Below, piece after piece: positions 6,035 through 61,781 of a stretch of 64,000 bases of DNA. Both the position numbers and the translations under genes were made by a program. The DNA is from Candidatus Magasanikiibacteriota bacterium (GTDB lineage: Bacteria > Patescibacteriota > Patescibacteriia > Magasanikbacterales > GWA2-37-8): positions 547,910 to 611,909 of the forward strand of contig DAIOHD010000001.1 in NCBI GenBank assembly GCA_036744835.1, written 5' to 3'. Positions within the stretch are counted from its first letter, which is position 1, and every line of letters begins with the position of its first letter. The notes beneath the pieces were generated by a model. That model was given only the letters and a program-made list of their open reading frames with translations. It did no database searches and was not told where the DNA came from.

Positions 6035-6124
6035 AAGTAGCTTTTGATTTATAAAGCCAAAAAATTACAAAAATTGTAAAAATTACTTAATTTAAAAAAT
6101 CTAAACTTAACCGATCTTAAAATC

Positions 6125-9518: not shown

Positions 9519-9637
9519 AAAAAATTATCAAATTTAAAGATTGAAAGATTTTGATATTGGATATTGAATATTAAATATCAACCACCCCTACCCCTCCTTC
9601 GTAAGAAGGATAATATCCAATATTCAATATTCATTAT
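9519..9637. repeat. AT-rich palindromic spacer (atattggat/atattgaat words) with a GC hairpin core ccttcGTAAgaagg
   Basis: Inverted word arrays flank ccacccctacccctccttcgtaagaagg. Confidence 0.5.
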
Positions 9638-16602: not shown

Positions 16603-16643
16603 AGTTTTTGTTTACGGCTACTAAAAGTAGCTACTCGGGGTAT

Positions 16644-16672
16644 ATTATAGCACATTTTGGCAGTTTTGTCAA
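16644..16672 (-). promoter_or_regulatory. Consensus sigma70 promoter overlapping a TTGRC-N6-GTCAA palindrome (shared motif, copy a)
   Basis: Minus strand reads cTTGACAaaactgccaaaatgtgcTATAAT. The plus-strand motif is gcacattttggcagttttgtcaag. Confidence 0.6.
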
Positions 16673-16836
16673 GGTCTTAATTTAGCTAGTTATAGCCAAA
16701 TTAAGAATTATAAAAATTACAAAGATTACAAAAATTACAAAGATTATGTTTTTTGGCTAATATTAAATAAAAATAAAAAACCGCTAAAATTAGCGATTTT
16801 TCAATTTATTTTTTATTAATTCATAATCTTACCAGC

Positions 16837-24369: not shown

Positions 24370-24411
24370 AAAAAATTATAGAAATTACAGAGATTACAAA
24401 AATTACAAATA

Positions 24412-26280
24412 TTAATTGGAAATTATTAAATTGAAATTGTTAAATTCATAATTTTGCAAACGGGAATTTTTTGTCCAATCAACCAAATATTTTTCCGCAA
24501 TACTATATTCCATAAGTCCTACGGCGCTGGCTTTTTGTTGAAGCGGAAAAACATGCAAAGATAATGTATTTTCTTTTATCACTAAACCCAGAGAAAGGCC
24601 TTGCTGGGTTGGAACGGAAAAATATTGATCAAATATGAAATTGCCGAGCGAATAAAAAACAGGTTTATTTTGATAAATTTCCATTTCTTGCACCACGTGC
24701 GGGTGATGACCAATAACTGTATCCGCGCCGTTATCTACAAAATAATGTGCCAGTTCGCGTTGGCGAGTATTGGAAATTTCTTTGTATTCATATCCCCAAT
24801 GGATAAAAATAATTACTTTTTCTGCGCCTTTACTTTTTGCTAAATCAATCAATTTTTTTACCGCTGTTTTTTCCACCGGTGAATTGGTATCGTTGAGTCC
24901 AATAAAACCTATTTTGTAATCCCCTACTTGTTTAATAATCAAAGATTCGTTATCTACTCTATATTGCGAACCAAAATATTCAAAACCAAATTTATCTAAA
25001 TTTTTTTTATTTTCTATAAAACCGGCACTGCTCATATCCAAAGTATGGTTATTGGCTAAACTAAATAAACCAAAATTGTATTTTTTCAATTCCGGTAAAA
25101 GAACAGGGTCAAAACGAAAAGCAATTTCTTTGGTGGTGGCGCGTCGTGAATCCGCAAACGGTCCTTCCAGATTAGCAACAATCAAGTCCATTCCAAGAAA
25201 AAATCTATTTTCTTGTCCGGCTAAATTTTTCAATAAATAATCAAAACCGTGTTGATCTATTTTTGTCTTCACACTGCGGTCAAGCATCATATCGCCAAAA
25301 AATAACAAGCTAGCAACTTTTTCTTTTTGTGCATCTCCTCCTATAAAATAAGGAGAATAATAACTAGTGGTTTCTTTGAGAGATGGGGTGTTTAAAATTT
25401 GTGCTGAATTATCAGACAGTTCATAAGCGACTTTACCATAATTTTTTGTAAATAAATATTTGGTCAAAATATATAAACTCCCCGGAGAATCAGTTTCCAA
25501 TTTGAAAGATCGTTCAAAATCCAAATTTTTAATAACTTGTTCACTAAGTTCGTCATGAAAATCAGACACTGGGTTTGTGAGATAGTGAGAAAAATCAACC
25601 GATGCAACAACCACAGAATCATCCGTTACATTTTCCACTAAATATTGATAAACTTTTTCTAAAGTTGTACTCGAAGTATAATAACTAAATATTATCGGCA
25701 CGATTTTTATTTTTGGCAAAGATTTTTTAATAAAAGAAACTAGTGATGAAATGCTTTGTTCTTTAGTAAAAACATTTTCATCAGCCAAACGAGCGATATT
25801 TTTTTCTTGTAAATCAGAAATTATATTAATTTCCGGCGCCAAAATTCCATACGGCGTTTGCCAAGCAAAATCTGTGGTCAGGACTTCACCGTTACCGCTA
25901 TGATAATGATCAGGGCCGAGCAAATAAATAACTTCAGGGTTTTGTTTTTGTAAGTTTTTAAAAAAAGCAGCAGATAAATGACCGGCCAAAAGGTGGTGTG
26001 GTACTATTCCGCCTTTTATATTTCCTAAATTATCCGGAATGAGCGGAGCTCTCTGACAAGCTTCTTCATAAATTTGCAGATCAAAGGGTTCAGCATAAAT
26101 AAAATTGGTAAAAATTTCTTCTTTACTTTGTTTGTTTTCTTTTTGTGTTTTTTGATTAATAGCCAAAATTTCACGACTATCCAAAAAAACCGGTGCTTGA
26201 CGACACAAATTTACAAAAACAACGCCCGATAATAAAATTATCGGGAGAAGAATTAAATTGATAAATATTATTTTCTTCAT
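24412..26280 (-). CDS. Fusion protein: N-terminal TM segment, MEMO1/AmmeMemoRadiSam-B-like domain, C-terminal CapA (PGA_cap) metallophosphoesterase domain
   Basis: GGIVPHHLLAGH (MEMO-like) followed by GDMMLDRSV, ANLEGP, LANNHTLD and IGHHPHVVQ (CapA). Confidence 0.6.
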   Translation of the reverse strand: MKKIIFINLILLPIILLSGVVFVNLCRQAPVFLDSREILAINQKTQKENKQSKEEIFTNFIYAEPFDLQIYEEACQRAPLIPDNLGNIKGGIVPHHLLAGHLSAAFFKNLQKQNPEVIYLLGPDHYHSGNGEVLTTDFAWQTPYGILAPEINIISDLQEKNIARLADENVFTKEQSISSLVSFIKKSLPKIKIVPIIFSYYTSSTTLEKVYQYLVENVTDDSVVVASVDFSHYLTNPVSDFHDELSEQVIKNLDFERSFKLETDSPGSLYILTKYLFTKNYGKVAYELSDNSAQILNTPSLKETTSYYSPYFIGGDAQKEKVASLLFFGDMMLDRSVKTKIDQHGFDYLLKNLAGQENRFFLGMDLIVANLEGPFADSRRATTKEIAFRFDPVLLPELKKYNFGLFSLANNHTLDMSSAGFIENKKNLDKFGFEYFGSQYRVDNESLIIKQVGDYKIGFIGLNDTNSPVEKTAVKKLIDLAKSKGAEKVIIFIHWGYEYKEISNTRQRELAHYFVDNGADTVIGHHPHVVQEMEIYQNKPVFYSLGNFIFDQYFSVPTQQGLSLGLVIKENTLSLHVFPLQQKASAVGLMEYSIAEKYLVDWTKNSRLQNYEFNNFNLIISN

Positions 26281-26456
26281 GAAACTAATTTTATAATCCG
26301 AATACTACAAATTAATATCCCTGCCCACCAACAGCATGAGCCGTAGGTGATAGCAGGCGGGCGAATTCCTCAAATTACTACGACATCCGAATTATTAATA
26401 TTCGGGTGATTCATTATTTATTCGGAGCATTCGGATGATATTCGTAAATTCGGATC

Positions 26457-27072: not shown

Positions 27073-28632
27073 TTACTTCTCCAGCCGCGGAAAAAGTGGT
27101 TGTAATTCTCCTATCTTATTTCCTACTGTCAATTCCACCCAGGTCTGTAAATCTTCCAATTTTTTAGCATTTTCTTTGACAGGATCAAGTCCGAGCTGGA
27201 TAAAAATCTTCTCTGAAGTTTCAGGCATCACCGGATATATCATTATCGCAATATGGCGTAAACTTTCGCATAAGTGGTAAAGCAAATCTTTTACTTCTTC
27301 GGTTTTGCCTTCTTTACTCATTGTCCACGGTTTTTTATCGGAAATCAATTGATCACAATAAGTAATAAACTTCCAAGTACTTTCAAGTGCGCGATCAAAA
27401 CGCCATTTGTCCATATTTTTTTGGTATTCCGGCCAAATCTCGTCGGTTAAATATTTTATCAAATCATTGTTTACATTTTTTACTTTTGGTACTTCACTAT
27501 CGGAATATTTCACCACCATGGATAAAACACGGTTGGTTAAATTTCCCAAACCGTTGGCCAAATCAGCATTAAAACGAACCTCAAATTTACTTTCGGAATA
27601 ATCACCGTCATTATCAAAAGGAATTTCGCGCATCAAGAAATAACGCACTGATTCCAGCGGATATTTTGTTACAATTTCCATTGGATCAATAACATTACCT
27701 ACTGTTTTGCTCATTTTTTGACCATCAACAGTCATCCAGCCGTGTACAGCAATAGTTTTGGGCAATTCCAAACCAGCCGACATCAACATCGCCGGCCAGA
27801 GCAAAGAATGAAAGCGGTTGATTTCTTTGCCAATAACATGTGCATCTGCAGGCCAATATTTTTTCAATAATTTTTCGTCTTCACCATATCCCAATGCGGT
27901 CACATAATTGGTCAAAGCGTCAAACCAAACATACATTACCTGGGTTTTATCTCCCGGCACGGGCACGCCCCAAGATAATTTGTCCGAAGACCTGGAAATG
28001 GAAATATCTTCCAATCCACTTTTTAAAACATTATACATTTCATTGTAGCGGCTTTCCGGATAAACAAAATCCTTGTTTTTTTCAAACAAAAATTCAAGCG
28101 GTTCTTGATATTTGGAAAGTTTGAAAAAATAATTTTCTTCTTCCAATAATTCTGGCTCTTTGTTGTGGTCCGGACACTTACCATCCACTAAATCTTTTTC
28201 GGTTTTATAAGCTTCACACCCTACGCAGTATAAACCACTGTATTTTTTTTTATAAATATCCCCGCTCTTTTCCGCGGCTTTCCAAAATTCTTGTGCGCGG
28301 TCTTCATGGCGCTTCTGCGTAGTACGGATGAAATCGTTGTTAATGATATTCCACTGATCGGCAAGATTCACATATTCCGCGGAAGTTTGCGCGGCGAAAT
28401 CAGCCACATCCATACCTTTTTCCTTGGCGGTTTTCAACATCTTTTGACCGTGTTCATCGGCTCCGGTTAAAAAATATACATCTTTACCGAGCATTCGTTG
28501 ATAGCGGGCCATGACATCGGTATAAAGTAATTCCAAAGCAAAACCGATGTGGGGAGAGGCGTTGGCGTAGGGTATAGCAGTGGTAAGATAAAATTTTTCT
28601 TTTTTGGACATACTTATTTTTTTTAATTTCAA
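27073..28632 (-). CDS. metG: Methionyl-tRNA synthetase
   Basis: PYANASPHIGFA (HIGH) and KMSKT motifs. Confidence 0.9.
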   Translation of the reverse strand: MKLKKISMSKKEKFYLTTAIPYANASPHIGFALELLYTDVMARYQRMLGKDVYFLTGADEHGQKMLKTAKEKGMDVADFAAQTSAEYVNLADQWNIINNDFIRTTQKRHEDRAQEFWKAAEKSGDIYKKKYSGLYCVGCEAYKTEKDLVDGKCPDHNKEPELLEEENYFFKLSKYQEPLEFLFEKNKDFVYPESRYNEMYNVLKSGLEDISISRSSDKLSWGVPVPGDKTQVMYVWFDALTNYVTALGYGEDEKLLKKYWPADAHVIGKEINRFHSLLWPAMLMSAGLELPKTIAVHGWMTVDGQKMSKTVGNVIDPMEIVTKYPLESVRYFLMREIPFDNDGDYSESKFEVRFNADLANGLGNLTNRVLSMVVKYSDSEVPKVKNVNNDLIKYLTDEIWPEYQKNMDKWRFDRALESTWKFITYCDQLISDKKPWTMSKEGKTEEVKDLLYHLCESLRHIAIMIYPVMPETSEKIFIQLGLDPVKENAKKLEDLQTWVELTVGNKIGELQPLFPRLEK

Positions 28633-28716
28633 ATATCAAATTTCCAATTTCCAATCAATTTCAAAATCCAAATTTCAAATTTTGATATTGGATATTGGAT
28701 ATTTGACATTTAGTGA
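28633..28716. repeat. AT-rich palindromic spacer (tttccaatt/atattggat words)
   Basis: tcaaatatcaaatttccaatttccaatca ... tgatattggatattggatatttgacatt forms an imperfect inverted repeat. Confidence 0.5.
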
Positions 28717-29388
28717 TTATTTTCGTGAAATAATCACGACGAATTCCCCTCTTTCATCTTTCATCTTCTCCATAATTTCATAGATTGTTCCGCGGTAAAT
28801 CGTTTCAAACTTTTTGGTCAATTCGCGACACACGACAATTTGTCTTTTCGGATCTAATAACTCTTTTAATTCTTGCAAACATTTCAAAATGCGATGGCCG
28901 GATTCGTAAAAAACAACTGTTTCCTCTGCCTGCACCACTTCCTTGAAATATTTTTGTCTTTTATTTTTGTGCGGAGGAAAACCCATAAATATAAATCTGT
29001 CAGTCGGAAAACCGGAAATGGACAGGGCCATTACTACGGCGGAAACTCCCGGAATCGCCACGATATTTTCCCCTAGCCCTTTTTTAATCAAATATTCAAT
29101 AAGTAAGCCACCTGGGTCAGAAATCCCCGGAGTACCGGCATCAGTAACTAAACCTACATTCTTGCCGGATAAAAGCATGTTTTCAATTTCTTTGAATTTC
29201 GCCATATCACTATGCTGATGAAAATTGACCAACTGTTTATTGATTTCATAATGATCCAACATATTTTTGGTCACCCTGGTATCTTCACACAATATCAAAT
29301 CAACGCTTTTAAAATTTTCCAAAGCGCGCAAAGTAATATCACCCAAATTTCCAATAGGTGTAGCGATAATATAGAGGGTGCCAGGCAT
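28717..29388 (-). CDS. rsmI: 16S rRNA (cytidine1402-2'-O)-methyltransferase
   Basis: Tetrapyrrole-methylase fold with the N-terminal LYIIATPIGNLGDIT motif. Confidence 0.85.
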   Translation of the reverse strand: MPGTLYIIATPIGNLGDITLRALENFKSVDLILCEDTRVTKNMLDHYEINKQLVNFHQHSDMAKFKEIENMLLSGKNVGLVTDAGTPGISDPGGLLIEYLIKKGLGENIVAIPGVSAVVMALSISGFPTDRFIFMGFPPHKNKRQKYFKEVVQAEETVVFYESGHRILKCLQELKELLDPKRQIVVCRELTKKFETIYRGTIYEIMEKMKDERGEFVVIISRK

Positions 29389-29452: not shown

Positions 29453-29662
29453 AACTCAAAACTCAAATGTCAAAAGTCAAAACCAAAACCTTAAATGTCA
29501 AAACTGACGATAAGTGTCATTACGAATCCGCAAAGCGGATGAAGTAATCCCACTGCTTTCTGAATTTTGTGGGATTGCTTCGTCATTACATTCCTCGCAA
29601 TGACAAATTTTTTAGGTTTTAAGTTGTAGTTTTGAGATTTGCGTTTTGAATTTTGAGATAAA
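29453..29662. repeat. MITE-like element copy 2 (same arms, divergent multi-hairpin core)
   Basis: Arms aactcaaaactcaaatgtcaaaagtcaaaacc and ggttttaagttgtagttttgagatttgcgttttgaattttgag. Core hairpins atccgcAAAgcggat, aatcccac..gtgggatt and gtcattac..gcaatgac. Confidence 0.55.
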
Positions 29663-29904: not shown

Positions 29905-30017
29905 ATATTTATATAATTTAATAGTAAATTAAATAATAAAGTTTATTTTATAGTAAAGACTACAATAGAATAAAAGGAGTTCTTAATTTTTAATTTTCAA
30001 TTTTACAATTTTTAGTG

Positions 30018-30103
30018 AATTTTTAGTGTAACAATTTACAAACCGAACATTGATAATTGAACATTGATAATTAATTAAAAATTTTAAATTAAAAATTGAA
30101 AAT
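30018..30103. repeat. ~86-bp AT-rich repeat, copy A, 3' of nifU
   Basis: Near-identical to 30836-30922 (taacaatttacaaacYgaacattgataattgaaMattgataattaattaaaaattttaaattaaaaattgaaaatt). Confidence 0.6.
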
Positions 30104-30108
30104 TTTCG

Positions 30109-30792: not shown

Positions 30793-30835
30793 ACTTTATT
30801 TAATTTTAAATTTTCAATTTTGCAATTTTTATTTT

Positions 30836-30922
30836 AGTTAATTTTTAATGTAACAATTTACAAACTGAACATTGATAATTGAAAATTGATAATTAATTAA
30901 AAATTTTAAATTAAAAATTGAA
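30836..30922. repeat. ~86-bp AT-rich repeat, copy B, between nifS and nifU
   Basis: See copy A. About 95% identical. Confidence 0.6.
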
Positions 30923-30925
30923 AAT

Positions 30926-33481: not shown

Positions 33482-33603
33482 AACTCAAAAGTCAAAGGTC
33501 AAAAGTCAAAACTTTGGTGTCCCAATTAAATCGGGACGAATTTTATTATAGATATTGCGAAGCAATACAATAGTTTTGAGATTTGCGTTTTGAGATTTGA
33601 GAT
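33482..33603. repeat. MITE-like element copy 3 (short core)
   Basis: aactcaaaagtcaaaggtcaaaagtcaaaac | ggtgtcccaattaaatcgggac..attgcGAAgcaat | ttttgagatttgcgttttgagatttgag. Confidence 0.6.
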
Positions 33604-33605
33604 TT

Positions 33606-34730
33606 TTATATCATACTAATATCGTATGATATAACTTCGGTTTTGTCAAGTGTGGATAAGTCCAACCTCTTTTCTAGCTCCTCTACTTTCTCTTTTTTGG
33701 CTCTAGTTTGAGGGTGAGCCGCTACAAATAAACTACAACAATCTTCATACGGCCGATTGGAAATATCTAGTGTTCCTATTTTACGAGCCAATTTAACCAC
33801 TTCAACTTTATTACTTCCCGACAAAGGATTAAGTTTAAGAATATCAGTCCCGGCATAAACCGCACTGAGATTTTCTAGTGTTTGTGAAGCGACTTGACCC
33901 AGACTGTCCCCTGTCACCAGTCCTAAATATTTTTGTTTTTTTGCCACTTGTTGTGAAATTTTAAGCATCAACCGACGTGTAATGAGCATACGATAATCTG
34001 ATGGTATTTTCATCACAATTTGTTTTTGCCAAAAGGCAAACGGTACAATATAGAGTTTGCTTGTGATTTGATAAGCGCAAAGTTTTTTTACCAAATCAAA
34101 AATCTTTTCCGAAACTTCTTGGGTCACTTCTGTTTGATTTTGAAAGTGTATAAAATCAACTTGGGCCCCGCGCTTCATCATCGTATAAGCGGCCACCGGA
34201 CTGTCTATACCACCGGATAACAAACATAATAATTTTCCCGAAGTTCCGGTCGGCAATCCGCCTATCCCATCAATATCATTACCGCAAACATAAGTTTCTT
34301 CTTTAGTTATAAAAATAGAAATTTTAATATCAGGATTTTTTAAATCAACTTTTAAACCAAATTTTTTTCCCAAAATTCCGCCTATTTTTCCGCTTATCTC
34401 TTGTGATTTATAAAGAAATTTTTTATATGACCGCATAGTTTCTACGGCAAAAGTTAACCCAGAATAATTTTTAAAAACTTTTTTGGCCACTTTAGCGATT
34501 TCATCTAAATCGTTTTTACAAACTATAACCGGAGAAATTTTGGCAATACCAGGAATAAGTTCTAACTGTTTTTGTTTTTCTTCATCAATATCTAAAAGCA
34601 GACCGCCTTCGGTCCGCTTGATAATGGTGGGAGAAAGAAGTTTTTTTAAATTCTCTCGCAAGGCATCAAAAAACATTTTTTGGTTGTTGCCTTTGAGGAA
34701 AATTTCGTCGACTCGGAGATAAAAAAGCAT
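33606..34730 (-). CDS. thiI: tRNA uracil-4 sulfurtransferase ThiI
   Basis: THUMP region plus the PP-loop LLSGGIDSPVAAY. Confidence 0.8.
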   Translation of the reverse strand: MLFYLRVDEIFLKGNNQKMFFDALRENLKKLLSPTIIKRTEGGLLLDIDEEKQKQLELIPGIAKISPVIVCKNDLDEIAKVAKKVFKNYSGLTFAVETMRSYKKFLYKSQEISGKIGGILGKKFGLKVDLKNPDIKISIFITKEETYVCGNDIDGIGGLPTGTSGKLLCLLSGGIDSPVAAYTMMKRGAQVDFIHFQNQTEVTQEVSEKIFDLVKKLCAYQITSKLYIVPFAFWQKQIVMKIPSDYRMLITRRLMLKISQQVAKKQKYLGLVTGDSLGQVASQTLENLSAVYAGTDILKLNPLSGSNKVEVVKLARKIGTLDISNRPYEDCCSLFVAAHPQTRAKKEKVEELEKRLDLSTLDKTEVISYDISMI

Positions 34731-34862
34731 AATGACTCAAAAATATCAAATGACAAATATCCAATTTCCAATCAAGTTCAAAATCGAAATGTCAAAATTT
34801 GTAATTTGATATTTTTTATTGATTTGACATTGGATATTGGAAATTTGAAATTATAATAATAT
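34731..34862. repeat. AT-rich palindromic spacer (tttccaat/atattggaaatt words)
   Basis: aatatccaatttccaatcaag...gacattggatattggaaatttgaaatt. Confidence 0.5.
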
Positions 34863-38983: not shown

Positions 38984-40030
38984 TTATTTTTTTGTGTTAG
39001 TAGCTACTTTTTCTTCAGGCATAGTAGTAGTAGCATCAAACACTACTGGAGTTTCAATTTTTGTTCCATCAACTTCTTTTTTAGCTGAAGCAAAAGGAGA
39101 TTTGTCACAATAAAAATTTATCTCTGTACAGCCAAGCTGGAGCCATTCGTAAATATAACTTGGATCTTCATCTATCGCCATATACACTTGATAAATGTGA
39201 GGAAATTGTTTGAGGGTATTTTCTATTTCTGCCAAAAATTGCGCACTACCGCAAGAACTATTGGCATTTGGTATCAAGGTGCGTAAATCTTTGAGATTAA
39301 CCAGAGCTACATTTTCTACAACTTTTACGCTTCGTAAAATTCGTGCTGTACTACTACTGAAAAAACTTTGAAAACCAGCTTCTACTTGCGCATCATTCGG
39401 GCCAGCAAACAAAACACGCAAAACTTGTTCTTCATAAGGCAAAGTTCCGGAAACAGCCACTTCTACTGGATAAACCAAACGACAATCCAACATTTCCGGA
39501 TTCAACTTATTATTATTGAAAAAAACTTTGAATTTGTTTATTTTAAATTCTTTGCCCGAATCTATTTTGAAACTTCCCAAAACTTCATTGACTCCGCGAT
39601 GTAACATAATAAATTGTTCCATCTGTGGCGAGGTATAAGGATTGTCTAAGGTGCGAATCAAAACAAAAACATAACTGTTAGTATAAGCAAAGACTTGTTG
39701 ATTTAAAACAAGTTCAGCGTTATTTTTATAATTTTGCCAAGTTTCAAAAGGATAAATAGCTAAACGAAAAAGCGGATATTCTTGTCCCGGCAAACCATTG
39801 TATACAAAAGATAAAACTGTAATATCATTTTGTATTTCTTCTATAATACTAAAATTATCAAACCAGCTATCAGGAAAAGAAAGTGAAAAATCATATTTAT
39901 CAGAATAATATTTTTTTTGTGTATAACCTTCCATCTTTTGTAAATCAGTTTGTTTTTGAAAACAACCAGAAAGTACGGTGCCACATATAAATAGTAGTGT
40001 GATAAAAAATAATTGTTTAAATCTTAACAT
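38984..40030 (-). CDS. Lipoprotein with a C-terminal GerMN-like domain
   Basis: Signal peptide with lipobox LSGC. C-terminal region resembles the GerMN / spore-germination domain. Confidence 0.5.
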   Translation of the reverse strand: MLRFKQLFFITLLFICGTVLSGCFQKQTDLQKMEGYTQKKYYSDKYDFSLSFPDSWFDNFSIIEEIQNDITVLSFVYNGLPGQEYPLFRLAIYPFETWQNYKNNAELVLNQQVFAYTNSYVFVLIRTLDNPYTSPQMEQFIMLHRGVNEVLGSFKIDSGKEFKINKFKVFFNNNKLNPEMLDCRLVYPVEVAVSGTLPYEEQVLRVLFAGPNDAQVEAGFQSFFSSSTARILRSVKVVENVALVNLKDLRTLIPNANSSCGSAQFLAEIENTLKQFPHIYQVYMAIDEDPSYIYEWLQLGCTEINFYCDKSPFASAKKEVDGTKIETPVVFDATTTMPEEKVATNTKK

Positions 40031-40112
40031 AGTTCGTATTTTTAAAATATAAAAATATTAAATATTGGTTATTAATACTCTTATTTTAATCTAAAACGAA
40101 TAAAAAGGCAAT

Positions 40113-40715
40113 AAAAAAGGCGCAGCTATGAGAAGCTGCGCCAAGGTACGGTACAAGGTACGATACGAAACAGGACAAAAACAATTCTGATCCTTTGACA
40201 GGGATAAAGGCGAAGACAACAATCTCCGGTAAAAACCCGCTTCAGTAGGACCTTTTTGGCCAGCGTGTTAGCCATCAGGACCTCAAGATTGTTGTTTCCA
40301 AGAACTTGGATTGGAGAGGATAGCCAAGACCACATTACAACCTTACCTCTCAAGCAAGAAAAAGCTATTTAACAGTGGCTTGTATCTTCGCACAAACTGT
40401 AAAATAGCTGGATGTCTCTGCTTAAAAGCTACCGTTTTTAAGAAACGGAGTAAGCTTTACCGACAAACTCGGTAGGTTTAGGCATCACTTACGATACGCT
40501 TGTTGCACTGCTATGACCTAGATGAAGGAAACAGTGCATAGGTTTTTTGATTGCAGCAGATAGAACTGCTAGGTCTTTGTTGGCGACCAAGCCCCTAGCA
40601 CAGATAAAAGAAATTAAGTTGTTTTTTTCTGTGCGAAAAAACACTCCATCTTTCGGATTGCGACCGCTTACCTGTCTGCCAAAGAACATGTTTTCTGTCC
40701 AAAAAAACATAAACA
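40113..40715 (-). ncRNA. Candidate large structured ncRNA (~590 nt), class unresolved
   Basis: GC-rich (~45%) ORF-free island in a ~30% GC genome. Dense hairpins (GCACAGA..UCUGUGC, GGUC..GACC, UGCACUG..CAGUGCA, CCGUUU..AAACGG). A -10 TATAAT lies at 40722-40717. A strong terminator ggcgcagct-atgaga-agctgcgcc plus T-run lies at 40142-40113. Confidence 0.35.
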
Positions 40716-42452: not shown

Positions 42453-42524
42453 GGCCCGTTCGTCTATCGGTTAGGACACCGCCTTCTCAAGGCAGTAAGA
42501 GGGGTTCGACTCCCCTACGGGCTA
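42453..42524 (+). tRNA. tRNA-Glu (anticodon CUC)
   Basis: Cloverleaf folds by hand. Acceptor GGCCCGT/ACGGGCT. D-arm GTCT..GGAC. Anticodon loop TTCTCAA (U33, CTC, A37). T-arm AGGGG-TTCGACT-CCCCT. CCA is not encoded. Confidence 0.75.
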
Positions 42525-42528
42525 CAGA

Positions 42529-42561
42529 AATACTCCAAACTTGTTTTGGAGTATTTTTTTA
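42529..42561 (+). terminator. Intrinsic terminator after tRNA-Glu
   Basis: aatactccaaa-cttgt-tttggagtatt followed by ttttttt. Confidence 0.65.
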
Positions 42562-42895
42562 GTCGCGAAGCGAGAGTCGAACGGGAAAGGGAGAAAACGG
42601 GAGTTTTCTCTTTGCAGAGGAAAGCTCACGAAAACCCGAAGGTTTTCGTGAGAGTCCCGATAAAATCGGGACGAGTGAGATTTCCCCTACGGGCTACAGA
42701 AACAAAATGCTCAGCGTAAGCTGGGTTTTTTGTTTCTGTATTCTGACCGGGGAGTCGAAGGGTGCGAATGAGCAAGGAGCGACAGCGACGAAGCGAGCTG
42801 ACGAAAATATGCCAGTGGCATATTTTCGGGCACCCCGGACGCGACTACCCTACGGGCTACAAAAATACTCCAAACTTATTTTGGAGTATTTTTTA
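42562..42895 (+). repeat. Two tandem modules, each consisting of GC-rich perfect hairpins, a 15-nt copy of the tRNA-Glu 3' end (cccctacgggctaca) and a terminator
   Basis: Direct repeats at 42511-42525, 42684-42698 and 42847-42861. Hairpins at 42591-42610, 42625-42652, 42654-42672 and 42803-42827. Terminators at 42709-42731 and 42864-42895. Confidence 0.55.
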
Positions 42896-44224: not shown

Positions 44225-44257
44225 AAAATATAATTTTTATAAAAATTATTTAAATTC

Positions 44258-44373
44258 AAAACTCAAAAGTCAAAAGTCAAAACTTTGGTGTCCTGAATAA
44301 ATCAGGGCAATTTTATTATATATATCGCGAAGCGATACGATAGTTTTGAGATTTGCGTTTTGAGATTTGAGAT
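44258..44373. repeat. MITE-like element copy 4 (short core; sister of copy 3)
   Basis: caaaactcaaaagtcaaaagtcaaaac | ggtgtcctgaataaatcagggc..atcgcGAAgcgat | ttttgagatttgcgttttgagatttgag. Confidence 0.6.
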
Positions 44374-44376
44374 TAT

Positions 44377-46107
44377 TTACCTATCTTCTTCCACCCCATA
44401 ATAATCCATCGTGAATTTAGCCAATTCCCTAAATGTTATGGCTGCTGTACCTTCCGCCCAAAGACGTTGTGGTTTTTCATATTTTACCACAATTACCACC
44501 TTTGGTTCTTTGACCGGTAAAAATCCACAAAAAGTGTGGTTGGTATCTGTACTACTATAACCTGAAGGTCCAGGGATTTGAGCCGTGCCTGTTTTACCGG
44601 CAATAAAATATCTGTCCAAACGAACAGTGTTCGTATATGTTTTTTCTGTAACTGAAGTCAACATAGCTGTAAGCAAACGCGAAGCTCGAGAAGAAATAAC
44701 TTGCTCGATAATTTTTGGCTCTACTTTTTCTATTTTACCATCACTTCTTTTGATTTCATCAACAATTCTTGGTTGTATTAACTTACCACCATTAGCAATT
44801 ACACTGTAAGCCGTAGCTAACTGCAAAGGGGTTACCGTAATCCCTTGACCAAAAGAAGCTTGGGCCGGACCAATTTGGGATTTTTTTTCTAAATTTTTCA
44901 AATTACCATCAACTTCCTTATCTAGCTCAACACCTAGTTTTTGACCAAAACCAAATTTACGAACATATTCAGTAAATTTTTCCCAACCGATTTTTTCCGC
45001 TACCCACATCATACCAGTATTGACCGAATTTTCTAAAACATTAGTCATAGTAATGGAACCATAACATTTCTTCAAAGCATTGCGAATAATATAAGGACCA
45101 TATTTCATTTCGCAAGGATCATTAAACCATGTATCCGGGGTTATTAATTCCATATCCAAAGCTGCACCCATAATAACTGGTTTAAAAACCGAACCCGGTT
45201 CATATGGGGTAAAAATAGCCTGATTATTAAAAATAGCGATATCTTCAATTTTGCCATAATTATTTGGATCAAAATCAGGATAAGAACACATTGCCAAAAT
45301 TGCACCGGTTTGAGGATTCATCATAACCAAAGCAGCTGATTGAGCCTTGTGTTCCTCTGCGCCTTTTTTTAAAAGATCACAAGCTTTATATTGCAAAGCT
45401 CGATCAATTGTTAAAATCAAATCATCTCCATTTTTAGCTTCAATTGTCGTCATATCCGCCAAGGTAATCCAACTTCCTTTGGCTCCACGCTCAGCAAACA
45501 AATAACCACCTTTCCCAGATAATATACTATTCCAATATCCTTCTATACCATAATTTCCCTGCATATTACCATCATTGTCCATATTACAAAAACCAAGTAT
45601 TGAAGATCCTAAATTATTTTCTGGATAATAACGGTATACCTCGGCCGATTTATAAATTCCTCCCAAATCAACTTTCTCTATCTTTTTTACAACTTCTTCA
45701 GGGACTTTTCGCGCCAAAGATTCAAATGGATCATTTGCTTTATTTAATTTTTCTCTAACTATTTCTTTTTTAATTTCATCCAGTTCTAGAATTTCAGCAA
45801 CTTTTTCCGTTGTACTATTAATTTCATTTTTATCCATTTCTTTTGGGACCGCAAAAATTTGATAAAACCAGCGATTTATGGCTATCGGAAAAGTTTCTTT
45901 TGTACGCGAATCTTGAAAATAAATTTGTCCACGCTTGGGATGAATTTTTTGATAAATTTCATGTGTACTCATCGCCAAGGTTTTATAATAATCATGTTGA
46001 TTAACTTGTAAATAAAAAAGTTTACCAATAATTGCAATGGCTATTAAAATAAAAAGCGCTGATAATAAGCGAAGTTCTAACGAATTGCTGTCTTCGCGAT
46101 TAAACAT
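44377..46107 (-). CDS. Penicillin-binding protein 2 / FtsI-type transpeptidase
   Basis: N-terminal TM, dimerisation domain, SxxK (SVFK), SxN and KTGT motifs. Confidence 0.85.
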   Translation of the reverse strand: MFNREDSNSLELRLLSALFILIAIAIIGKLFYLQVNQHDYYKTLAMSTHEIYQKIHPKRGQIYFQDSRTKETFPIAINRWFYQIFAVPKEMDKNEINSTTEKVAEILELDEIKKEIVREKLNKANDPFESLARKVPEEVVKKIEKVDLGGIYKSAEVYRYYPENNLGSSILGFCNMDNDGNMQGNYGIEGYWNSILSGKGGYLFAERGAKGSWITLADMTTIEAKNGDDLILTIDRALQYKACDLLKKGAEEHKAQSAALVMMNPQTGAILAMCSYPDFDPNNYGKIEDIAIFNNQAIFTPYEPGSVFKPVIMGAALDMELITPDTWFNDPCEMKYGPYIIRNALKKCYGSITMTNVLENSVNTGMMWVAEKIGWEKFTEYVRKFGFGQKLGVELDKEVDGNLKNLEKKSQIGPAQASFGQGITVTPLQLATAYSVIANGGKLIQPRIVDEIKRSDGKIEKVEPKIIEQVISSRASRLLTAMLTSVTEKTYTNTVRLDRYFIAGKTGTAQIPGPSGYSSTDTNHTFCGFLPVKEPKVVIVVKYEKPQRLWAEGTAAITFRELAKFTMDYYGVEEDR

Positions 46108-46238
46108 AGCAAAAAAAATAATTTCAAATTTCCAATATCCAATATCAAATCAATTTCAAAATCCAAATGTCAAAATTTGAAATTTGTCATTTGATATTTG
46201 TTATTGATTGGAAATTGGTAATTTGACATTTGTAATTT
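46108..46238. repeat. AT-rich palindromic spacer (tttccaatatccaat / attggaaattgg words)
   Basis: Long imperfect inverted repeat between the PBP2 start and the typA stop. Confidence 0.5.
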
Positions 46239-48059
46239 CTAATTGATTCCTTTCGCTTTTCTTTTTGCTTCGTCCGCATTTAAAATAGTCTTTCTAATAC
46301 GAACATTTTGCGGAGTGATTTCTACCAATTCATCATCTCCGATATATTGAAGAGCGTCTTCCAAATCCATAGTTTTTGGCGCATTGAAATGTTCGGTCAC
46401 TCCATGTCCTTTACTACGCATATTGGAAAGTTGTTTTTCTTTACAAACATTTACTGACAAATCCCCTGTTCTGGCATTTTGTCCCACCACTTGTCCTTTA
46501 TAAACTTTGACAGCCGGACCGATAAATAAAACCCCACGATCTTGGATATTCATCAAACCATACATATTACTTTCTCCGGTTTCATGAGCTACGAGCGATC
46601 CTTGTTCTTTTTCTTTCCACAAAGTCGCATCTTCTTGATAATCATAAAAACAAGTATTTATAATTCCCAATCCTTTGGTATCAGTCAAAAATTCACTACG
46701 ATAACCAAAAAGTCCACGCGTTGGAATAATAAATTCTAGAAAACTAATACCTCGTTCACTAGCCATATTAGTCATAGTCCCATGACGAGTGCCTAATTTT
46801 TGGATCACAACTCCAGCAAATTCCTCCGGAACTTCCACAAAGACTTGGTCAAAAGGTGCGAGTTTTTTTCCATCTACTTCCTTTATTATAACTTGTGGAC
46901 GAGATACTTGCAATTCAAAACCTTCACGACGCAATCTCTCAATCAAAATTTCTAAATGTAATTCACCACGACCACAAACAATCCAACTACCACTAGAATC
47001 AGTATCGCTAACTTTCAAAGCCATATCCGTTTCCAATTCTTTATACAAACGTTCTCTGATTTGACGTGAAGTAGTAAACTTGCCTTCTTGTCCAGCAACT
47101 GGAGAATCGTTTACAGAAAAAGTCATTTTTACAGTTGGTTCTTCAATATTGATAGTAGGTAAAGCAACAGGATCATTGACATCGGCAATAGTTTCACCGA
47201 TATTTATTTCAGCTATTCCAGAAATTGCCGCGATATCTCCAGCTTTTACTTCTGTTATTTCCGATCTATCCAAACCATCAAACGTCATCAAACTGGTCAT
47301 GCGATATTTTTTCATTTCTCCCGTACGATTGATATACATCACATCTTGGTTGGTTCTCAAAGTGCCATTATAAACACGACCAATAGCAATACGTCCTTTA
47401 TAATTATCACCCACGATAGATACAGTCAGCATCTGAAGAGGTTTGTTTTCGTCGCCTTGAGGTGGCGGAACTTCTTTGATGATAGTTTCAAAAATATCAA
47501 CAACATTTGTCATTTTTTCTAGTTCCGGAGTCAAACCAGCTTTACCGGCCTTGGCGCAAGAATATACGACTGGGAAATCACAAATTTCATCACTGGCGCC
47601 AAGTTCAATAAAAAGCTCCAATGTTTTATCGAGCACATATTGTATACGGGCGTCAGGTTTATCTATTTTATTTACTACTACGATAACTTTTAGTCCGAGC
47701 GCGAGAGCTTTTTTCAAAACAAAACGAGTTTGAGGCATGGGGCCTTCTTTGGCATCAACCAATAACAAACAACCGTCTGCCATCTTGAGCACACGTTCTA
47801 CTTCTCCGCCAAAATCAGCGTGTCCCGGAGTATCAATAATATTAATTTTTGTACCATTAAAAACTACTGAAGCAATTTTAGAAAAAATAGTAATTCCGCG
47901 TTCTTTTTCCAAATCATTACTATCCATGATGCAAGTAGCATCTTCATTTTCTTTGTTAAGCTTAGTTTTACTTTGACGCAACAATGCATCCACGAGCGTA
48001 GTTTTGCCGTGGTCAACGTGAGCAATAATAGCGATGTTTCGAATATCTGTTTGTTTCAT
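46239..48059 (-). CDS. typA: Translational GTPase TypA/BipA
   Basis: AHVDHGKTT G1 and DTPGHADF G3 motifs. BipA-type C-terminal domain. Confidence 0.9.
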   Translation of the reverse strand: MKQTDIRNIAIIAHVDHGKTTLVDALLRQSKTKLNKENEDATCIMDSNDLEKERGITIFSKIASVVFNGTKINIIDTPGHADFGGEVERVLKMADGCLLLVDAKEGPMPQTRFVLKKALALGLKVIVVVNKIDKPDARIQYVLDKTLELFIELGASDEICDFPVVYSCAKAGKAGLTPELEKMTNVVDIFETIIKEVPPPQGDENKPLQMLTVSIVGDNYKGRIAIGRVYNGTLRTNQDVMYINRTGEMKKYRMTSLMTFDGLDRSEITEVKAGDIAAISGIAEINIGETIADVNDPVALPTINIEEPTVKMTFSVNDSPVAGQEGKFTTSRQIRERLYKELETDMALKVSDTDSSGSWIVCGRGELHLEILIERLRREGFELQVSRPQVIIKEVDGKKLAPFDQVFVEVPEEFAGVVIQKLGTRHGTMTNMASERGISFLEFIIPTRGLFGYRSEFLTDTKGLGIINTCFYDYQEDATLWKEKEQGSLVAHETGESNMYGLMNIQDRGVLFIGPAVKVYKGQVVGQNARTGDLSVNVCKEKQLSNMRSKGHGVTEHFNAPKTMDLEDALQYIGDDELVEITPQNVRIRKTILNADEAKRKAKGIN

Positions 48060-48444: not shown

Positions 48445-48640
48445 GATACTCTCCTTTTAGATAATTTTATGATTCGGACCGCTTTGACTTGTAAAGAACT
48501 TTTTCCTATTTCTAGCTCTCATTCTTTTGAATAAGGGCTTGATAAAAGAAAAACTCTCCTAAATATGGAGAGATATGTCAAAAGATTTGTTTGTATCGCT
48601 TTTATCCTCTCTCCAAGATAAAGTTGATACGATTTGGGTT
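48445..48640 (-). promoter_or_regulatory. Structured 5' leader with alternative antiterminator/terminator hairpins (riboswitch- or attenuator-like)
   Basis: Minus strand reads uuGGAGAGAGgauaaaagcgauacaaacaaaucuuuugacauaUCUCUCCauauuuaGGAGAGuuuuucuuuu. The CUCUCC segment can pair either upstream (GGAGAGAG) or downstream (GGAGAG plus U-run). Confidence 0.4.
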
Positions 48641-48658
48641 TTTATTATTTAACTACAT

Positions 48659-48688
48659 AGTTTAGCACATTTTGACGGTTTTGTCAAG
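48659..48688 (-). promoter_or_regulatory. Promoter with TTGAC-N6-GTCAA palindrome (shared motif, copy b)
   Basis: Minus strand reads cTTGACAaaaccgtcaaaatgtgcTAAACT. The plus-strand motif is gcacattttgacggttttgtcaag. Confidence 0.55.
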
Positions 48689-48867
48689 CCCTAAAAGTGG
48701 CTAATATTAGCGAAATTGAAAATTACAAAAATTTAAAAGATTGCAAAAATTACAAAGATTGCTGTTTTTTGGCTAGGATTAGATAAAATAGTATAAAATA
48801 CTACAAAATTTGGCTTATTGTAAACAAAAAACCCTCGCGTCTGCGAGAGTAAAATATTTGTTTCTTA

Positions 48868-49596
48868 TCATTCCTGTTTTTCTTTTTTCTCTTTTTGAAA
48901 AACAACAATAGAAAAAATATTTTTTTTAAAGGTTGCGGCTTCTTGAAAAAAAGAAGATCCCAAAAAAACAATTGCATCATTTCCTGCTTTTTGAAACAAA
49001 GAAAACCCAATTAAACCAAGTATCACATCATTTCCTGCTTTTTGAAACAAAGAAAATCCGCAACATATTATACTTGCGTCATTTCTTGCTATTTGGAGTA
49101 AAGAAAATCCGAAAAAGCCAATCATCGTATCGTTTCTTGCTATTTGGAGTAAAGAAAATCCGAAAAAAAACATACTCGCATCATTTCCTGCTTTCTGAAA
49201 CAAAGAAAATCCGAAAATAATAGTGCCGTTATGTCCTGCTATTTGGAGTAAAGAAAAGCCTATAGCAACAACTGCATCATTTCCTGCTTTTTGAAACAAA
49301 GAAAATCCGAAAACAATAGTGCCATTAATTCCAGCTTTTTGGAACAGAGAAATGCCAAACCAAGAAAAAGCATTTTTTTCCGCTAACTGAAAAAACATGC
49401 AAATAGAATATACACTCCCTTCGAAATTAATTCCTCCAAAAACAGAATAAACATTCTTTCCTATCCTCCAAGGATATGAAATAAAAAAAATTCCAATAAG
49501 ATGCATGGGATTGTTAGTTATTAACAATCCGGCCAATACGGTAGCTACAACGGCCACTGTTAAATTTACAACGTTAGCGATATTTCTTTTCATCAT
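48868..49596 (-). CDS. Membrane/secreted protein built of ~9 tandem 17-aa repeats (GFSLFQKAGNDAxxxxx)
   Basis: True start is MMKRNIANVV at 49596 with a GGAGG RBS 6 nt upstream. The track ORF, extended to 49803, runs through the gene's own promoter. The DNA contains a 51-bp tandem array. Confidence 0.5.
   Translation of the reverse strand: MMKRNIANVVNLTVAVVATVLAGLLITNNPMHLIGIFFISYPWRIGKNVYSVFGGINFEGSVYSICMFFQLAEKNAFSWFGISLFQKAGINGTIVFGFSLFQKAGNDAVVAIGFSLLQIAGHNGTIIFGFSLFQKAGNDASMFFFGFSLLQIARNDTMIGFFGFSLLQIARNDASIICCGFSLFQKAGNDVILGLIGFSLFQKAGNDAIVFLGSSFFQEAATFKKNIFSIVVFQKEKKEKQE
48953..49390. repeat. 51-bp tandem repeat array (~8-9 units) inside the repeat-protein gene
   Basis: Recurring unit gcatcatttcctgctttttgaaacaaagaaaatccg..., read directly from the sequence. 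Confidence 0.6.
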
Positions 49597-49638
49597 GACA
49601 AACCTCCAAATAAATAAATTGTTAAAGATCAACAAAGT

Positions 49639-49668
49639 ATTGTGATACATTTTAACAATTTTGTCAAC
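49639..49668 (-). promoter_or_regulatory. Promoter with TTRAC-N6-GTCAA palindrome (shared motif, copy c)
   Basis: Minus strand reads gTTGACAaaattgttaaaatgtatCACAAT. The plus-strand motif is atacattttaacaattttgtcaac. Confidence 0.5.
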
Positions 49669-49797
49669 CCTGGCGCTGAGCGCCAGTAAAGCCACTCTTA
49701 GCGTGGCCCGCGAAGATAAGTCGGAGTTATAGTTACGCTTAACATAGACCCGCTCAGCGGGGGCGTGACAATAAATAAAAGTGACTAATATTAACCA

Positions 49798-49826
49798 AAA
49801 CAAAAAACCGCTTTTTCAGCGGTTTT
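49798..49826 (-). terminator. Intrinsic terminator of the acetyl-CoA synthetase gene
   Basis: aaaccgctgaaaaagcggttt followed by ttgtttt on the minus strand. Confidence 0.6.
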
Positions 49827-51888: not shown

Positions 51889-52049
51889 ACTTTAATAAAT
51901 TTTCAATTTTTAATTTTTTACCCCGTGAAATCCTGTCAAAGACAGGATCGCCTTCGGCAATATTTCACAGGGGTGAATTTTTAATTAATTTTCAATTACC
52001 GATCACCGATTTTCGTAGTTTCGTAGATTATTCGTACGTTCGTACGTAA

Positions 52050-61697: not shown

Positions 61698-61781
61698 AAA
61701 AGTATTATAGTATACCGTATATCGTATGTCGTATTACAATATTTTAAAATACTATATACGATATACTAAATACGAAATACA

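Follow-up and report, generated by a model that had tools for sequence, protein, structure and literature searches.

Heptamer-armed foldback elements outside rRNA genes in a Candidatus Magasanikiibacteriota genome: a probable family of intervening-sequence-like elements

The nature and origin of the intervening sequences (IVSs) of ribosomal RNA (rRNA) genes, and of the S23p genes that some of them carry, have been a puzzle since about 1990. IVSs are found in Salmonella, Leptospira, Coxiella and the Candidate Phyla Radiation (CPR). They have an inverted-repeat stem of about 28-30 bp, the loop of which may hold a gene of the PF05635 family (23S_rRNA_IVP, S23p; the encoded proteins are called IVP proteins below). 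They occur at apical loops of 16S/23S helices, also in forms without an open reading frame (ORF); their distribution is sporadic, and mobility has long been suspected and is unproven. In Coxiella, a 28-bp inverted repeat forms the stem of the IVS, tandem GACAGAT heptamers lie at the 5' stem, the loop holds an S23p ORF, and RNase III cuts the IVS out; the authors of that work still call the function and origin of IVSs unclear (PMC4990558). In CPR bacteria, Tsurumaki et al. reported that rRNA genes hold IVP ORFs as well as insertions that lack an ORF, for the most part at the top or the base of a stem-loop, in a text from which "inverted repeat" and "palindrom" are absent (10.1101/2024.02.27.582315). 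Here we describe an element found at positions 33482-33605 of a 64,000-nucleotide (nt) stretch of a Candidatus Magasanikiibacteriota genome (assembly GCA_036744835.1, contig DAIOHD010000001.1, positions 547,910 to 611,909; hereafter the window), together with three further copies in the same window. Its heptamer-repeat arms and apical cargo reproduce the architecture of the rRNA IVS, so that the window copies can be read as extra-ribosomal, gene-less IVS-like elements. With a probability of roughly 60%, the element is one of four ORF-less, extra-ribosomal copies of an IVS-like family of foldback elements with heptamer-repeat arms.

Repeats of 7-nt units have been described independently. Heptameric intergenic simple sequence repeats (SSRs), often arranged as convergent pairs, occur in Xanthomonas and Nostoc, with no function assigned (PMC4692102), and heptanucleotide elements were also described for Geobacter (PMC2700814). 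Moreover, dimers of repetitive extragenic palindromic (REP) sequences nested in longer palindromes are documented (PMC3733652). In the open-access papers and bioRxiv we found no account of a dispersed extra-ribosomal population of ORF-less elements, including outside rRNA in CPR genomes, and none that ties PF05635 genes in general to heptamer-repeat arms.

The original prediction had placed four elements in the window, and four are present: 8799-8985 (copy 1), 29453-29662 (copy 2), 33482-33605 (copy 3, with a revised end) and 44253-44375 (copy 4, with both ends revised). Every copy is made of an A-rich left arm of TCAAAxG/TCAAAAC heptamers, a hairpin core and a T-rich right arm (Table 1). The right arm has in all copies the form GTTTTGAGATTTG(C/A)(G/C)(T/A)TTTGA..., with units GTTTTGA/GATTTGA, and the right arms of copies 3 and 4 match fully over 31 nt. 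Tandem Repeats Finder (TRF) gave a period of 7 for all arms (8/8). The arms, about 30 nt long, pair along 23-25 positions, and the stem is interrupted every 7 nt by A.A/G.G mismatches; the terminal inverted repeats of about 28 bp described originally are therefore paired arms, as stated, but not clean repeats. The cargo between the arms is of two kinds. In copies 3 and 4 it consists of two small GC-rich hairpins connected via a TTTTATTA linker, while in copies 1 and 2 it is a nested module of about 90 nt with edges GTCAT...ATGAC. The stable word GCGAAGC, attributed at first to the cores in general, is found in copies 3 and 4 only, the cores of copies 1 and 2 being unrelated. The genomic setting has about 34% GC and nearly all genes of the window lie on the minus strand; those around the elements are ordinary housekeeping genes (ThiI, ProRS, MurF, FtsI/PBP, TsaE, QueH). 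All copies had been thought to sit in gaps between a gene end and a gene start on the minus strand, but copy 1 lies between convergent genes and overlaps the QueH ORF (8937-9518, minus strand), the final 15 codons of which (TQNSNVKSQNYNLKP) are supplied by its right arm region. Copy 2 is flanked on one side by a canonical terminator, found by a terminator scan, and on the other by TGCTACAAT, which by eye reads as a putative extended -10 promoter.

Both the arm words and the folding of the elements exceed what is expected by chance. With up to two mismatches, TCAAAAGTCAAAA has 37 matches as compared with 13.3 +/- 3.4 in shuffled sequences, and GTTTTGAGATTTG has 22 as compared with 7.0 +/- 3.0, none of 100 shuffles being as high in either case; the matches with 0-1 mismatch concentrate at the four copy sites. 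All four copies fold far below their shuffles (z = -4.8 to -6.8, 0/200 shuffles, DNA parameters), and copies 3 and 4 fold strongly on either strand. The 13 distinct copies of the short form, to which copies 3 and 4 belong, give the consensus left arm-TTTGGT-hairpin 1-linker with TTTTAT(T/C)A-hairpin 2-AC(N)3A-right arm, folding as a three-way junction. The linker word is kept in most of these relatives and a few deviate slightly. Standard pairs make up 97.3% of the pair cells, and changes on both sides are found at 4 pairs (8 cells) of the two small hairpins, with 0/500 shuffles reaching either this number of cells or the covariation score. The 60-bp cores of copies 3 and 4, which had been called near-identical, share only 50 of 60 positions (83%); the compensatory changes reported between them are nonetheless real, one T-A pair of hairpin 2 being replaced by C-G from copy 3 to copy 4 (ATTGC-GAA-GCAAT to ATCGC-GAA-GCGAT) and one C-G pair of hairpin 1 by T-A, so that the hairpins are preserved, as was proposed. 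The arm pairs are invariant across the 13 short-form copies and, since they never vary, give no covariation information. The A.A/G.G mismatches of the arms are also invariant in these 13 relatives and are found in 25 of 30 copies of a wider set. Their recurrence implies that each arm is conserved as a sequence and not merely as the pairing partner of the other.

The family is dispersed well beyond this genome. A 23-nt right-arm pattern with 20 specified bases has 102 matching stretches in a collection of species-representative genomes, where about 1 would be expected by chance according to our own estimate, which assumes uniform base composition (AT-rich genomes would give more). The same arms are present in about 100 genomes, mostly from CPR classes; the other hosts are labelled as Omnitrophota, Deltaproteobacteria/Thermodesulfobacteriota, Verrucomicrobiales, Bacteroidota, Chloroflexota and Sericytochromatia metagenome-assembled genomes (MAGs). 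An inverted partner lies within 400 nt of 48 of the 106 arm matches, and the pairs follow the order left-then-right in 24 cases against 5 right-then-left. The arms are thus not confined to generic low-complexity sequence lacking paired orientation, a possibility raised together with the original prediction. Furthermore, the GC content of the host loci ranges from 34 to 57.5%, so that local composition does not explain the AT-rich arms. The left-arm/hairpin 1 junction, used to scan metagenomes, returned 37 matches, about 20 of them attributable to chance, and added some 16 further short-form copies. No copy was found in 2.9 million viral contigs (IMG/VR), and a phage vector was rejected on these grounds.

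Several MAGs compared with the window (L078, L087, L099 and other CAY*/CAZ* 'binchicken' records) are labelled 'uncultured Gammaproteobacteria bacterium'. They are syntenic with the window, at 80-86% nucleotide identity. The proteins closest to those of the window, at 90% identity or more, carry the name Candidatus Magasanikbacteria (CPR/Patescibacteria); the taxon given for these MAGs looks mistaken.

Members of the family are found in place of natural hairpin loops and inside genes, and also in intergenic DNA. The 16S rRNA gene of a Saccharibacteria genome (L012) has inserts of 143 and 147 nt in place of the apical loops of two hairpins, and in 23S rRNA genes (L020, L022) an insert of 126 nt replaces an 8-nt loop. 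The copies borne by rRNA genes occur in both orientations. In another genome (L084), in-frame copies lie within a 767-aa membrane protein and within an ORF that we read as triose-phosphate isomerase-like. The four window copies are all intergenic and none is in an rRNA gene. Whole elements differ between relatives at matching sites: both L078 and L131 have a short-form element upstream of the orthologue of the gene at 38984-40030, whereas the window has none there (40031-40125), and at the site of copy 4 L131 has an unrelated armed palindrome. The presence/absence differences and the several dispersed copies agree with the description of the elements as MITE-like (miniature inverted-repeat transposable element) in the original prediction, as far as dispersed, multi-copy, non-coding inverted repeats are concerned. 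The 23S rRNA gene of L022, from a Parcubacteria genome (1903-5406), holds, in addition to its armed element, two insertions of small hairpin modules (at 2148 and 2307) and, near the 3' end, a group I intron (Rfam RF00028, 61.6 bits).

The cargo is exchanged separately from the arms. At the locus of copy 2, relative L115 has the same arms with only TTA in place of the core of about 95 nt (type B), a clean comparison that identifies the apical loop as the insertion point of the core. At the locus of copy 1, L040 keeps the arms and has a core of type B, the type of copy 2, inside them, while its core of type A is found elsewhere, between different arms. The small hairpin modules of copies 3 and 4 are also present away from any arm. 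One such site lies near the gene for tRNA-Glu(CTC) (42453-42525), which is followed by its terminator and then by a second copy of the tRNA 3' end (…TTTCCCCTACGGGCTACAGAAA). This second 3' end (42560-42700) is interrupted by about 105 nt of nested hairpins, among which are modules of the element cores (TCGCGAAGCGA, plus GTCCCGATAAAATCGGGAC at 42654-42672), and the whole region 42453-42700 looks like a duplicated, att-like tRNA 3' fragment colonised by small hairpin modules.

At orthologous loci the arms are 87-99% identical. In the flanking genes of these loci, identity is 48-68% for third codon positions and 75-96% for the first two, so the arms are conserved like non-synonymous sites. The highest value concerns copy 4: the murF-ftsI stretch that contains it (44225-44375) is identical to L099 at 150 of 151 positions, and in both directions some 20 nt suffice for identity to drop to about 75-85%. 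As a separate observation, the typA/bipA gene (46239-48059) is 89% identical to that of L099 at third positions, as compared with about 60% for the adjacent pbp and murF; this mosaic similarity suggests recent recombination between the lineages of the window and L099.

The link with rRNA IVSs is reinforced by the genes found between such arms in longer relatives. All 14 intact PF05635 genes examined (hosts: CPR, Nostoc, Planktothrix, Bernardetia and Treponema), and one pseudogene, are located between heptamer-repeat arms or arrays. The upstream and downstream flanks are complementary in 12 of the 14 (p <= 0.0033, the floor of 300 shuffles), and an array with a lag of 7 lies beside 13. Relatives with a PF05635 gene between the same arms as those of the window are L037, L135, L141, L144, L146, L149, L153 and L154. 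In L037, a Doudnabacteria MAG, an arm pair 0.5 kb apart surrounds the PF05635 pseudogene, itself split by a nested hairpin insert; in L135 an intact 121-aa gene is located between (TAAAAG/TCAAAAG)n and (CTTTTTA)n arms. This gene has more than 1,500 homologues, and those with a named source are from CPR. In seven further CPR homologues whose flanks were retrieved, the A-rich heptamer arm extends up to the ATG and the T-rich arm begins at the stop codon (7/7). Moreover, two of the seven, L149 and L153, have the same inner motif as copies 1 and 2 of the window, AAAACCACAACTTAAAAG...GTTGTAGTTTTGAG (also ...GTCAAAACCACAACTTAAAAG / GTTGTAGTTTTGAG...). The IVP proteins match TIGR02436 and, weakly, Avd of diversity-generating retroelements. 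Outside CPR, a tblastn search of PLSDB plasmids returned homologues chiefly from Nostoc (18 of 33 records) and other cyanobacteria. The genes of cultured Nostoc, Planktothrix, Bernardetia and Treponema have a heptamer array in at least one flank in 6/6 cases and complementary flanks in 4/6, with units that differ between hosts (GTCGGAG/CTCCGAC in N. punctiforme, ATCCCCA/ATCGTAA in Planktothrix, ATTAGTG in Bernardetia and CTCTCCG in Treponema).

Two observations concern individual IVP loci. Records L145/L148 and L146/L147 (around 1880-2130) encode an identical IVP protein and differ downstream of the gene by a block of 123 nt, made of a 14-nt spacer and a second, ORF-less armed palindrome; this difference is a recent copy-number change, by tandem duplication or insertion. 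On plasmid p1 of Planktothrix agardhii (L159, NZ_LR882964.1, 13015-13965), the IVP gene with its ATCCCCA/ATCGTAA arms has as neighbours the DISARM helicase gene drmD and an MmeI-type restriction-modification gene; the cassette has landed inside a defence island.

From these data a working model can be outlined. The heptamer arms, of about 30 nt each, form a long stem in which a mismatch recurs every 7 nt and is conserved. This stem closes over a variable apical cargo: the two hairpins (copies 3 and 4), the module of about 90 nt (copies 1 and 2) or, among longer relatives, the PF05635 gene. The family would spread, or would once have spread, as DNA and without target duplication, through a hairpin-dependent process supplied in trans and not involving a DDE transposase. 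Each arm may be kept through sequence-specific recognition, beyond pairing alone, possibly by an IVP protein. When the element is co-transcribed, as is probably the case for copies 3 and 4, the stem would serve as an RNase III-type processing site or a transcript-end hairpin rather than as a promoter. A broader proposal, which we put forward only tentatively, is that PF05635 proteins and heptamer inverted arms constitute one previously unrecognised genetic unit across bacteria, in which the protein would recognise the arms, as DNA or as excised hairpin RNA, and help them spread into hairpin tips and intergenic sites without target duplication. The rRNA IVSs, the heptamers of short tandemly repeated repetitive (STRR) type known from cyanobacteria and from other bacteria, and the MITE-like elements in CPR genomes would then be forms of this unit, and an RNA intermediate with a reverse transcriptase would be one possible route of spreading.

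Several points weigh against the reading of the elements as an IVS-like family. The 64-kb window is without an IVP gene, and to our knowledge no catalytic activity has been attributed to PF05635 proteins. RNase III processing is known for rRNA IVSs and not for these intergenic copies. The IVP homologues sampled were the best-scoring and the plasmid-borne ones, not a random sample. The non-CPR phylum labels are those of the MAG records, cluster look-ups having returned the same labels, and the support for non-CPR hosts consists of GC content and gene content. None of the events found is an insertion that is both clean and recent and has identical flanks, and the strain difference between L145/L148 and L146 could be a tandem duplication. 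The 99% identity of the copy 4 stretch to L099 may derive from recent recombination rather than from selection; the unusual similarity of typA weakens copy 4 as proof of purifying selection, and the three other orthologous comparisons were used for this purpose. Finally, copy 2 lies in what we read as a probably untranscribed gap and its arms are still conserved, which would point to a constraint at the DNA rather than at the RNA level.

The window has about 20 intergenic palindromes with heptamer arms, and the four copies make up one family among them, within a wider pattern that the original prediction missed. All intergenic gaps were inspected, and about half of them consist of palindromes with AT-rich tandem-repeat arms, mostly heptamers; other arm units include ATATTGG, AATTTTC and TATCGTA, and arrays of period 9 such as ATTACAAAG are also present. 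TRF detected about 30 period-7 arrays in the window, mostly in the gaps between genes. The lag-7 autocorrelation of intergenic DNA is 0.372, the baseline being near 0.30, and the signal is echoed at lags 14 and 21, while coding DNA has a period of 3 only, with no lag-7 signal. Other armed palindromes have different units at the orthologous sites of relatives, as is the case for the one at 30793-30925, the site of which has CCAATGT/CCAATTT units in L115. Two further intergenic palindromes (26281-26456 and 51889-52049), with CCGAAT / ACGAA-type repeat arms and GC-rich cores (RNA minimum free energy -53.7 and -39.2 kcal/mol, respectively), may be another family of the same class. Arrays of period 9 (AAAAATTAC / AATTACAAA) are located upstream of genes at 6060-6099, 16706-16747, 24371-24414 and 48719-48762. 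They adjoin canonical TTGACA-17-TATAAT promoters at 16625-16836 and 48445-48867, two regions that are 79% identical over 113 nt (repeat family D14).

Table 1. Features of the four window copies, adjoining genes and other armed palindromes of the window.
Feature	Position	Sequence or structure	Remarks
Copy 1, left arm	8799-8829		Begins 1 nt past the TsaE gene (8295-8798, plus strand)
Copy 1, nested core type A	8834-8922	GTCATTCTGAG...CTCAGGATGAC	
Copy 1, right inner arm and right arm	8933-8985	Inner arm TTTTAGGGTTTTAAGTTGTAG	Overlaps the 3' end of the QueH ORF
Armed palindrome	9519-9637	ATATTGA/ATATTGG arms, GC-rich core	
Armed palindrome	28633-28716	AATTTCA/CCAATAT-type arms	
Copy 2, left arm and inner arm	29453-29505	…GTCAAAACCAAAACCTTAAATGTCAAAACTG	
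Copy 2, nested core type B	29506-29605	GTCATTACGAATCC...CTCGCAATGAC, about 95-100 nt	Inserted in the palindrome's apical loop
Copy 2, right inner arm and right arm	29606-29662	TTTTTTAGGTTTTAAGTTGTAGTTTTGAGATTTGCGTTTTGAATTTTGAGAT	
Armed palindrome	30793-30925	AATTTTC/ATTGATA units	Second copy at 30010-30105, 96% identical
Copy 3, left arm, A-rich	33482-33512	AACTCAAAAGTCAAAGGTCAAAAGTCAAAAC, four TCAAAxG heptamers	TRF period 7 at 33485-33511
Copy 3, core hairpin 1	33519-33537	GTCCCAATTAAATCGGGAC	
Copy 3, conserved single-stranded linker	33538-33553	GAATTTTATTATAGAT	Joins both core hairpins
Copy 3, core hairpin 2	33554-33566	ATTGC-GAA-GCAAT	Includes GCGAAGC
Copy 3, right arm, T-rich	33573-33605	GTTTTGAGATTTGCGTTTTGAGATTTGAGAT	Adjoins the ThiI stop codon
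ThiI gene	33606-34730		Minus strand; stop codon adjoins the right arm of copy 3
Armed palindrome	34731-34862		Repeat family D5, with 28622-28735 and 46117-46230
Copy 4, left arm	44253-44283	AATTCAAAACTCAAAAGTCAAAAGTCAAAAC	
Copy 4, core	44284-44342	Hairpin 1, TTTTATTA linker, hairpin 2 ATCGC-GAA-GCGAT	Hairpin 1 at 44290-44308, hairpin 2 at 44324-44336
Copy 4, right arm	44343-44375	Same as the right arm of copy 3	Adjoins the PBP/FtsI stop codon
PBP/FtsI gene	44377-46107		Minus strand; stop codon adjoins the right arm of copy 4
Armed palindrome	46108-46238	Unit different from TCAAAAG	L099 has an unrelated AAGATTx-armed palindrome at the same site
Armed palindrome	61698-61781	TATCGTA/AAATACG units	

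A regulatory role for the host and an origin by slippage alone are both judged less likely than an IVS-like family. According to the former, the elements would be cis-regulatory cassettes, acting as bidirectional terminators, transcript-end stabilisers, outward promoters (with TTGAC as the -35 box) or binding arrays for a host protein, and their dispersal would be secondary. This agrees with the conservation of arms and adjoining spacers far above synonymous sites at orthologous loci, with the start of most elements within about 40 nt of the upstream stop codon (within 10 nt for many) and with the resemblance of an A-rich arm, a hairpin and a T-rich arm to a bidirectional terminator; several gaps with armed palindromes are also without a canonical terminator. 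However, elements lie in 14 (+,+) and 12 (-,-) contexts, without preference of orientation, and in 8 divergent as compared with 2 convergent ones. In the core of copy 4 the scan marks the two hairpins as terminator-like for the plus strand, and there they face against the direction of the genes. A promoter-like TTGACT-17-AATAAT precedes murF at copy 4, but across 68 element ends -10 hexamers are not over-represented at a distance of 16-18 nt past the outermost TTGAC, and a portable promoter was rejected as a general function in spite of these words. Copy 2 lies between a terminator and a promoter of its own (the promoter read by eye), the same sites are empty or have unrelated palindromes in relatives, and copies occur within rRNA genes and ORFs. 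The suggestion that the elements could double as terminator-promoter cassettes thus finds no backing in orientation, -10 hexamers or location, and a host regulatory role is, in our judgement, unlikely. A somewhat lower probability is given to the possibility that the repeats were born on the spot, by slippage of heptamer SSRs around pre-existing hairpins with hairpin-templated repair keeping the symmetry, in which case nothing would move and the likeness between copies would be convergent. Heptameric SSRs are over-represented in bacteria, are often convergent pairs, vary between close relatives and have been attributed to slippage (PMC4692102). In the window, heptamer periodicity extends throughout the intergenic DNA with many different units, and orthologous arrays differ in unit as if homogenised array by array (AATTTTC vs AATTTCC/AATGTCC). 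Slippage would not account for the same 23-nt arm pattern, inner motifs and two-hairpin core in many lineages with hosts up to 57.5% GC, nor for arm mismatches that are conserved instead of repaired; whole elements, moreover, are found at the tips of rRNA hairpins and inside ORFs, orthologous sites differ in whether a whole element, or a core, is there, and the arms travel with a specific gene family (PF05635).

Two other explanations are given very little weight. A classical MITE, namely an insertion sequence of the DDE type that was shortened by deletion and is mobilised in trans by a transposase binding its terminal inverted repeats, would fit the size of 115-210 nt, the terminal inverted repeats, the several copies and the insertion polymorphisms; its parent would have AACTCAAAA...TTTTGAGTT termini, a transposase and target-site duplications. 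Both of the latter had been proposed as checks. No target-site duplication was seen at 37 element boundaries, and the comparison of occupied and empty sites revealed no consistent direct repeat; no transposase was found among the 20 ORFs scanned in the window or between arm pairs 0.4-3 kb apart, the intervals between distant arm pairs holding ordinary genes. Together with the 120-aa four-helix-bundle gene that is the cargo of longer relatives and the zero copies among the viral contigs, these results make a classical MITE very improbable, so that the label MITE-like does not extend to this class. Still lower is the probability that we assign to a structured non-coding RNA gene or a riboswitch-like leader with the three-way junction as its functional product. 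The junction is conserved, as is the linker, and there is some covariation in the two small hairpins, but the elements match no covariance model of Rfam 15 at gathering score, nor at E <= 5, both strands fold equally, both orientations are found relative to genes and within rRNA, and the core is swappable and dispensable. The mismatches of G.U and A.C type favour no single strand; as an indicator of the strand they were discarded, the cases being too few and contradictory. A strand-specific function was rejected given the balanced orientation relative to flanking genes and the presence of both orientations in rRNA.

The IVS-like family can finally be placed among the described systems. With rRNA IVSs it has in common the length and nature of the stem, the loop that may hold a PF05635 gene, the location of family members at apical loops of 16S/23S helices, the existence of ORF-less forms and the sporadic distribution and, with the Coxiella IVS in particular, the tandem heptamers in the stem. 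Unlike rRNA IVSs, the window copies lie between protein-coding genes, with relatives within ORFs, and hold small hairpin modules in place of an ORF. Like the convergent heptamer SSRs (GGGAATC in Xanthomonas, GGGGAYT in Nostoc, STRR of Calothrix PCC 7601, and those of Geobacter), the elements are intergenic arrays of 7-nt units capable of forming stem-loops; for these SSRs, the same sites are filled in related genomes while length and sequence vary (PMC4692102, PMC2700814). Within the window such variation between relatives is seen in the other palindromes, whereas the TCAAAxx arms are conserved as described above. The units of the window are AT-rich (TCAAAAG and the like), and formation of G-quadruplexes, proposed for G-rich heptamers, cannot apply; furthermore, the TCAAAxx family is conserved across lineages rather than lineage-specific and has a defined inner motif, a cargo and conserved arm mismatches.

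The REP sequences and the bacterial interspersed mosaic elements (BIMEs), tagged with GTAG or CGTC and associated with REP-associated tyrosine transposases (RAYTs), are also non-coding palindromes beside the 3' ends of ORFs, without target duplications and sometimes inside genes. The elements described here have this REP-type position, no more than about 20 nt from the upstream ORF's 3' end, and the REP dimers in longer palindromes (PMC3733652) parallel the location of cores A and B in the apical loop. They differ from REP/BIME in having AT-rich heptamer arms of 30 nt instead of GC-rich stems of 20-40 nt with a GTAG or CGTC tag, and in the divergent intergenic contexts, which are common for the elements and rare for REPs. 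The word CGTC is present in cores A and B, both of which start with GTCAT, but the stem of 8-9 bp and loop of 4-5 nt published for REPs do not fit these cores, and no RAYT gene was present among the ORFs scanned (64 kb of this genome and 8-kb pieces of others). The modules of hairpins 1 and 2, found also outside the arms, can be likened to the small dispersed repeats (SDR) that Elhai et al. reportedly described in 2008 in heterocystous cyanobacteria, hairpin modules said to be about 20-30 nt long and nested in other repeats; the Nezha MITEs of Zhou et al., also from 2008, are reportedly MITE-like elements of the same group of organisms. Both sequences and hosts differ. Foldback (FB) transposons of Drosophila and other eukaryotes have long inverted arms of short tandem repeats, variable in length, with an optional central cargo. 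Being eukaryotic, of kilobase scale and without sequence relationship to the window elements, they offer an analogy of form only.

Three other genes of the window deserve mention. An ORF of 311 aa without Pfam match (48868-49803, minus strand) is made of tandem DNA repeats of 51/102 nt (17/34 aa), in about 8 copies with 70-79% identity. The UvrD/Rep-type helicase at 12252-14714 (minus strand, 820 aa) has an RNase_T (DEDD exonuclease) domain at residues 464-617, within UvrD_C, and a 200-aa protein encoded at 14840-15442 on the plus strand, where few such genes are located, matches the Pfam 'Integrase repeat unit' twice (INT_rpt, E = 2.7e-17). As to the assemblies, a short-read contig of the same genome (L001, Logan SRR6007447_17582) stops inside copy 3 at position 33575, and many PF05635 homologues are located on contigs shorter than 2 kb.

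The IVS-like reading would bring three puzzles, namely the origin of IVSs and S23p, the heptamer repeats of bacteria and the ORF-less insertions in CPR rRNA, into a single architecture of heptamer arms and apical cargo, sometimes with an IVP gene. In practice, the elements interrupt short-read assemblies, give ORFs spurious tails such as that of QueH and insert into the rRNA genes used as markers. The tie with IVP genes makes a vague repeat testable, through the binding of IVP to the arms, RNase III sites in mRNAs and the co-occurrence of IVP genes with ORF-less arms. In the genomes of CPR bacteria, the heptamer-armed architecture has colonised ordinary intergenic sites, ORFs and rRNA.

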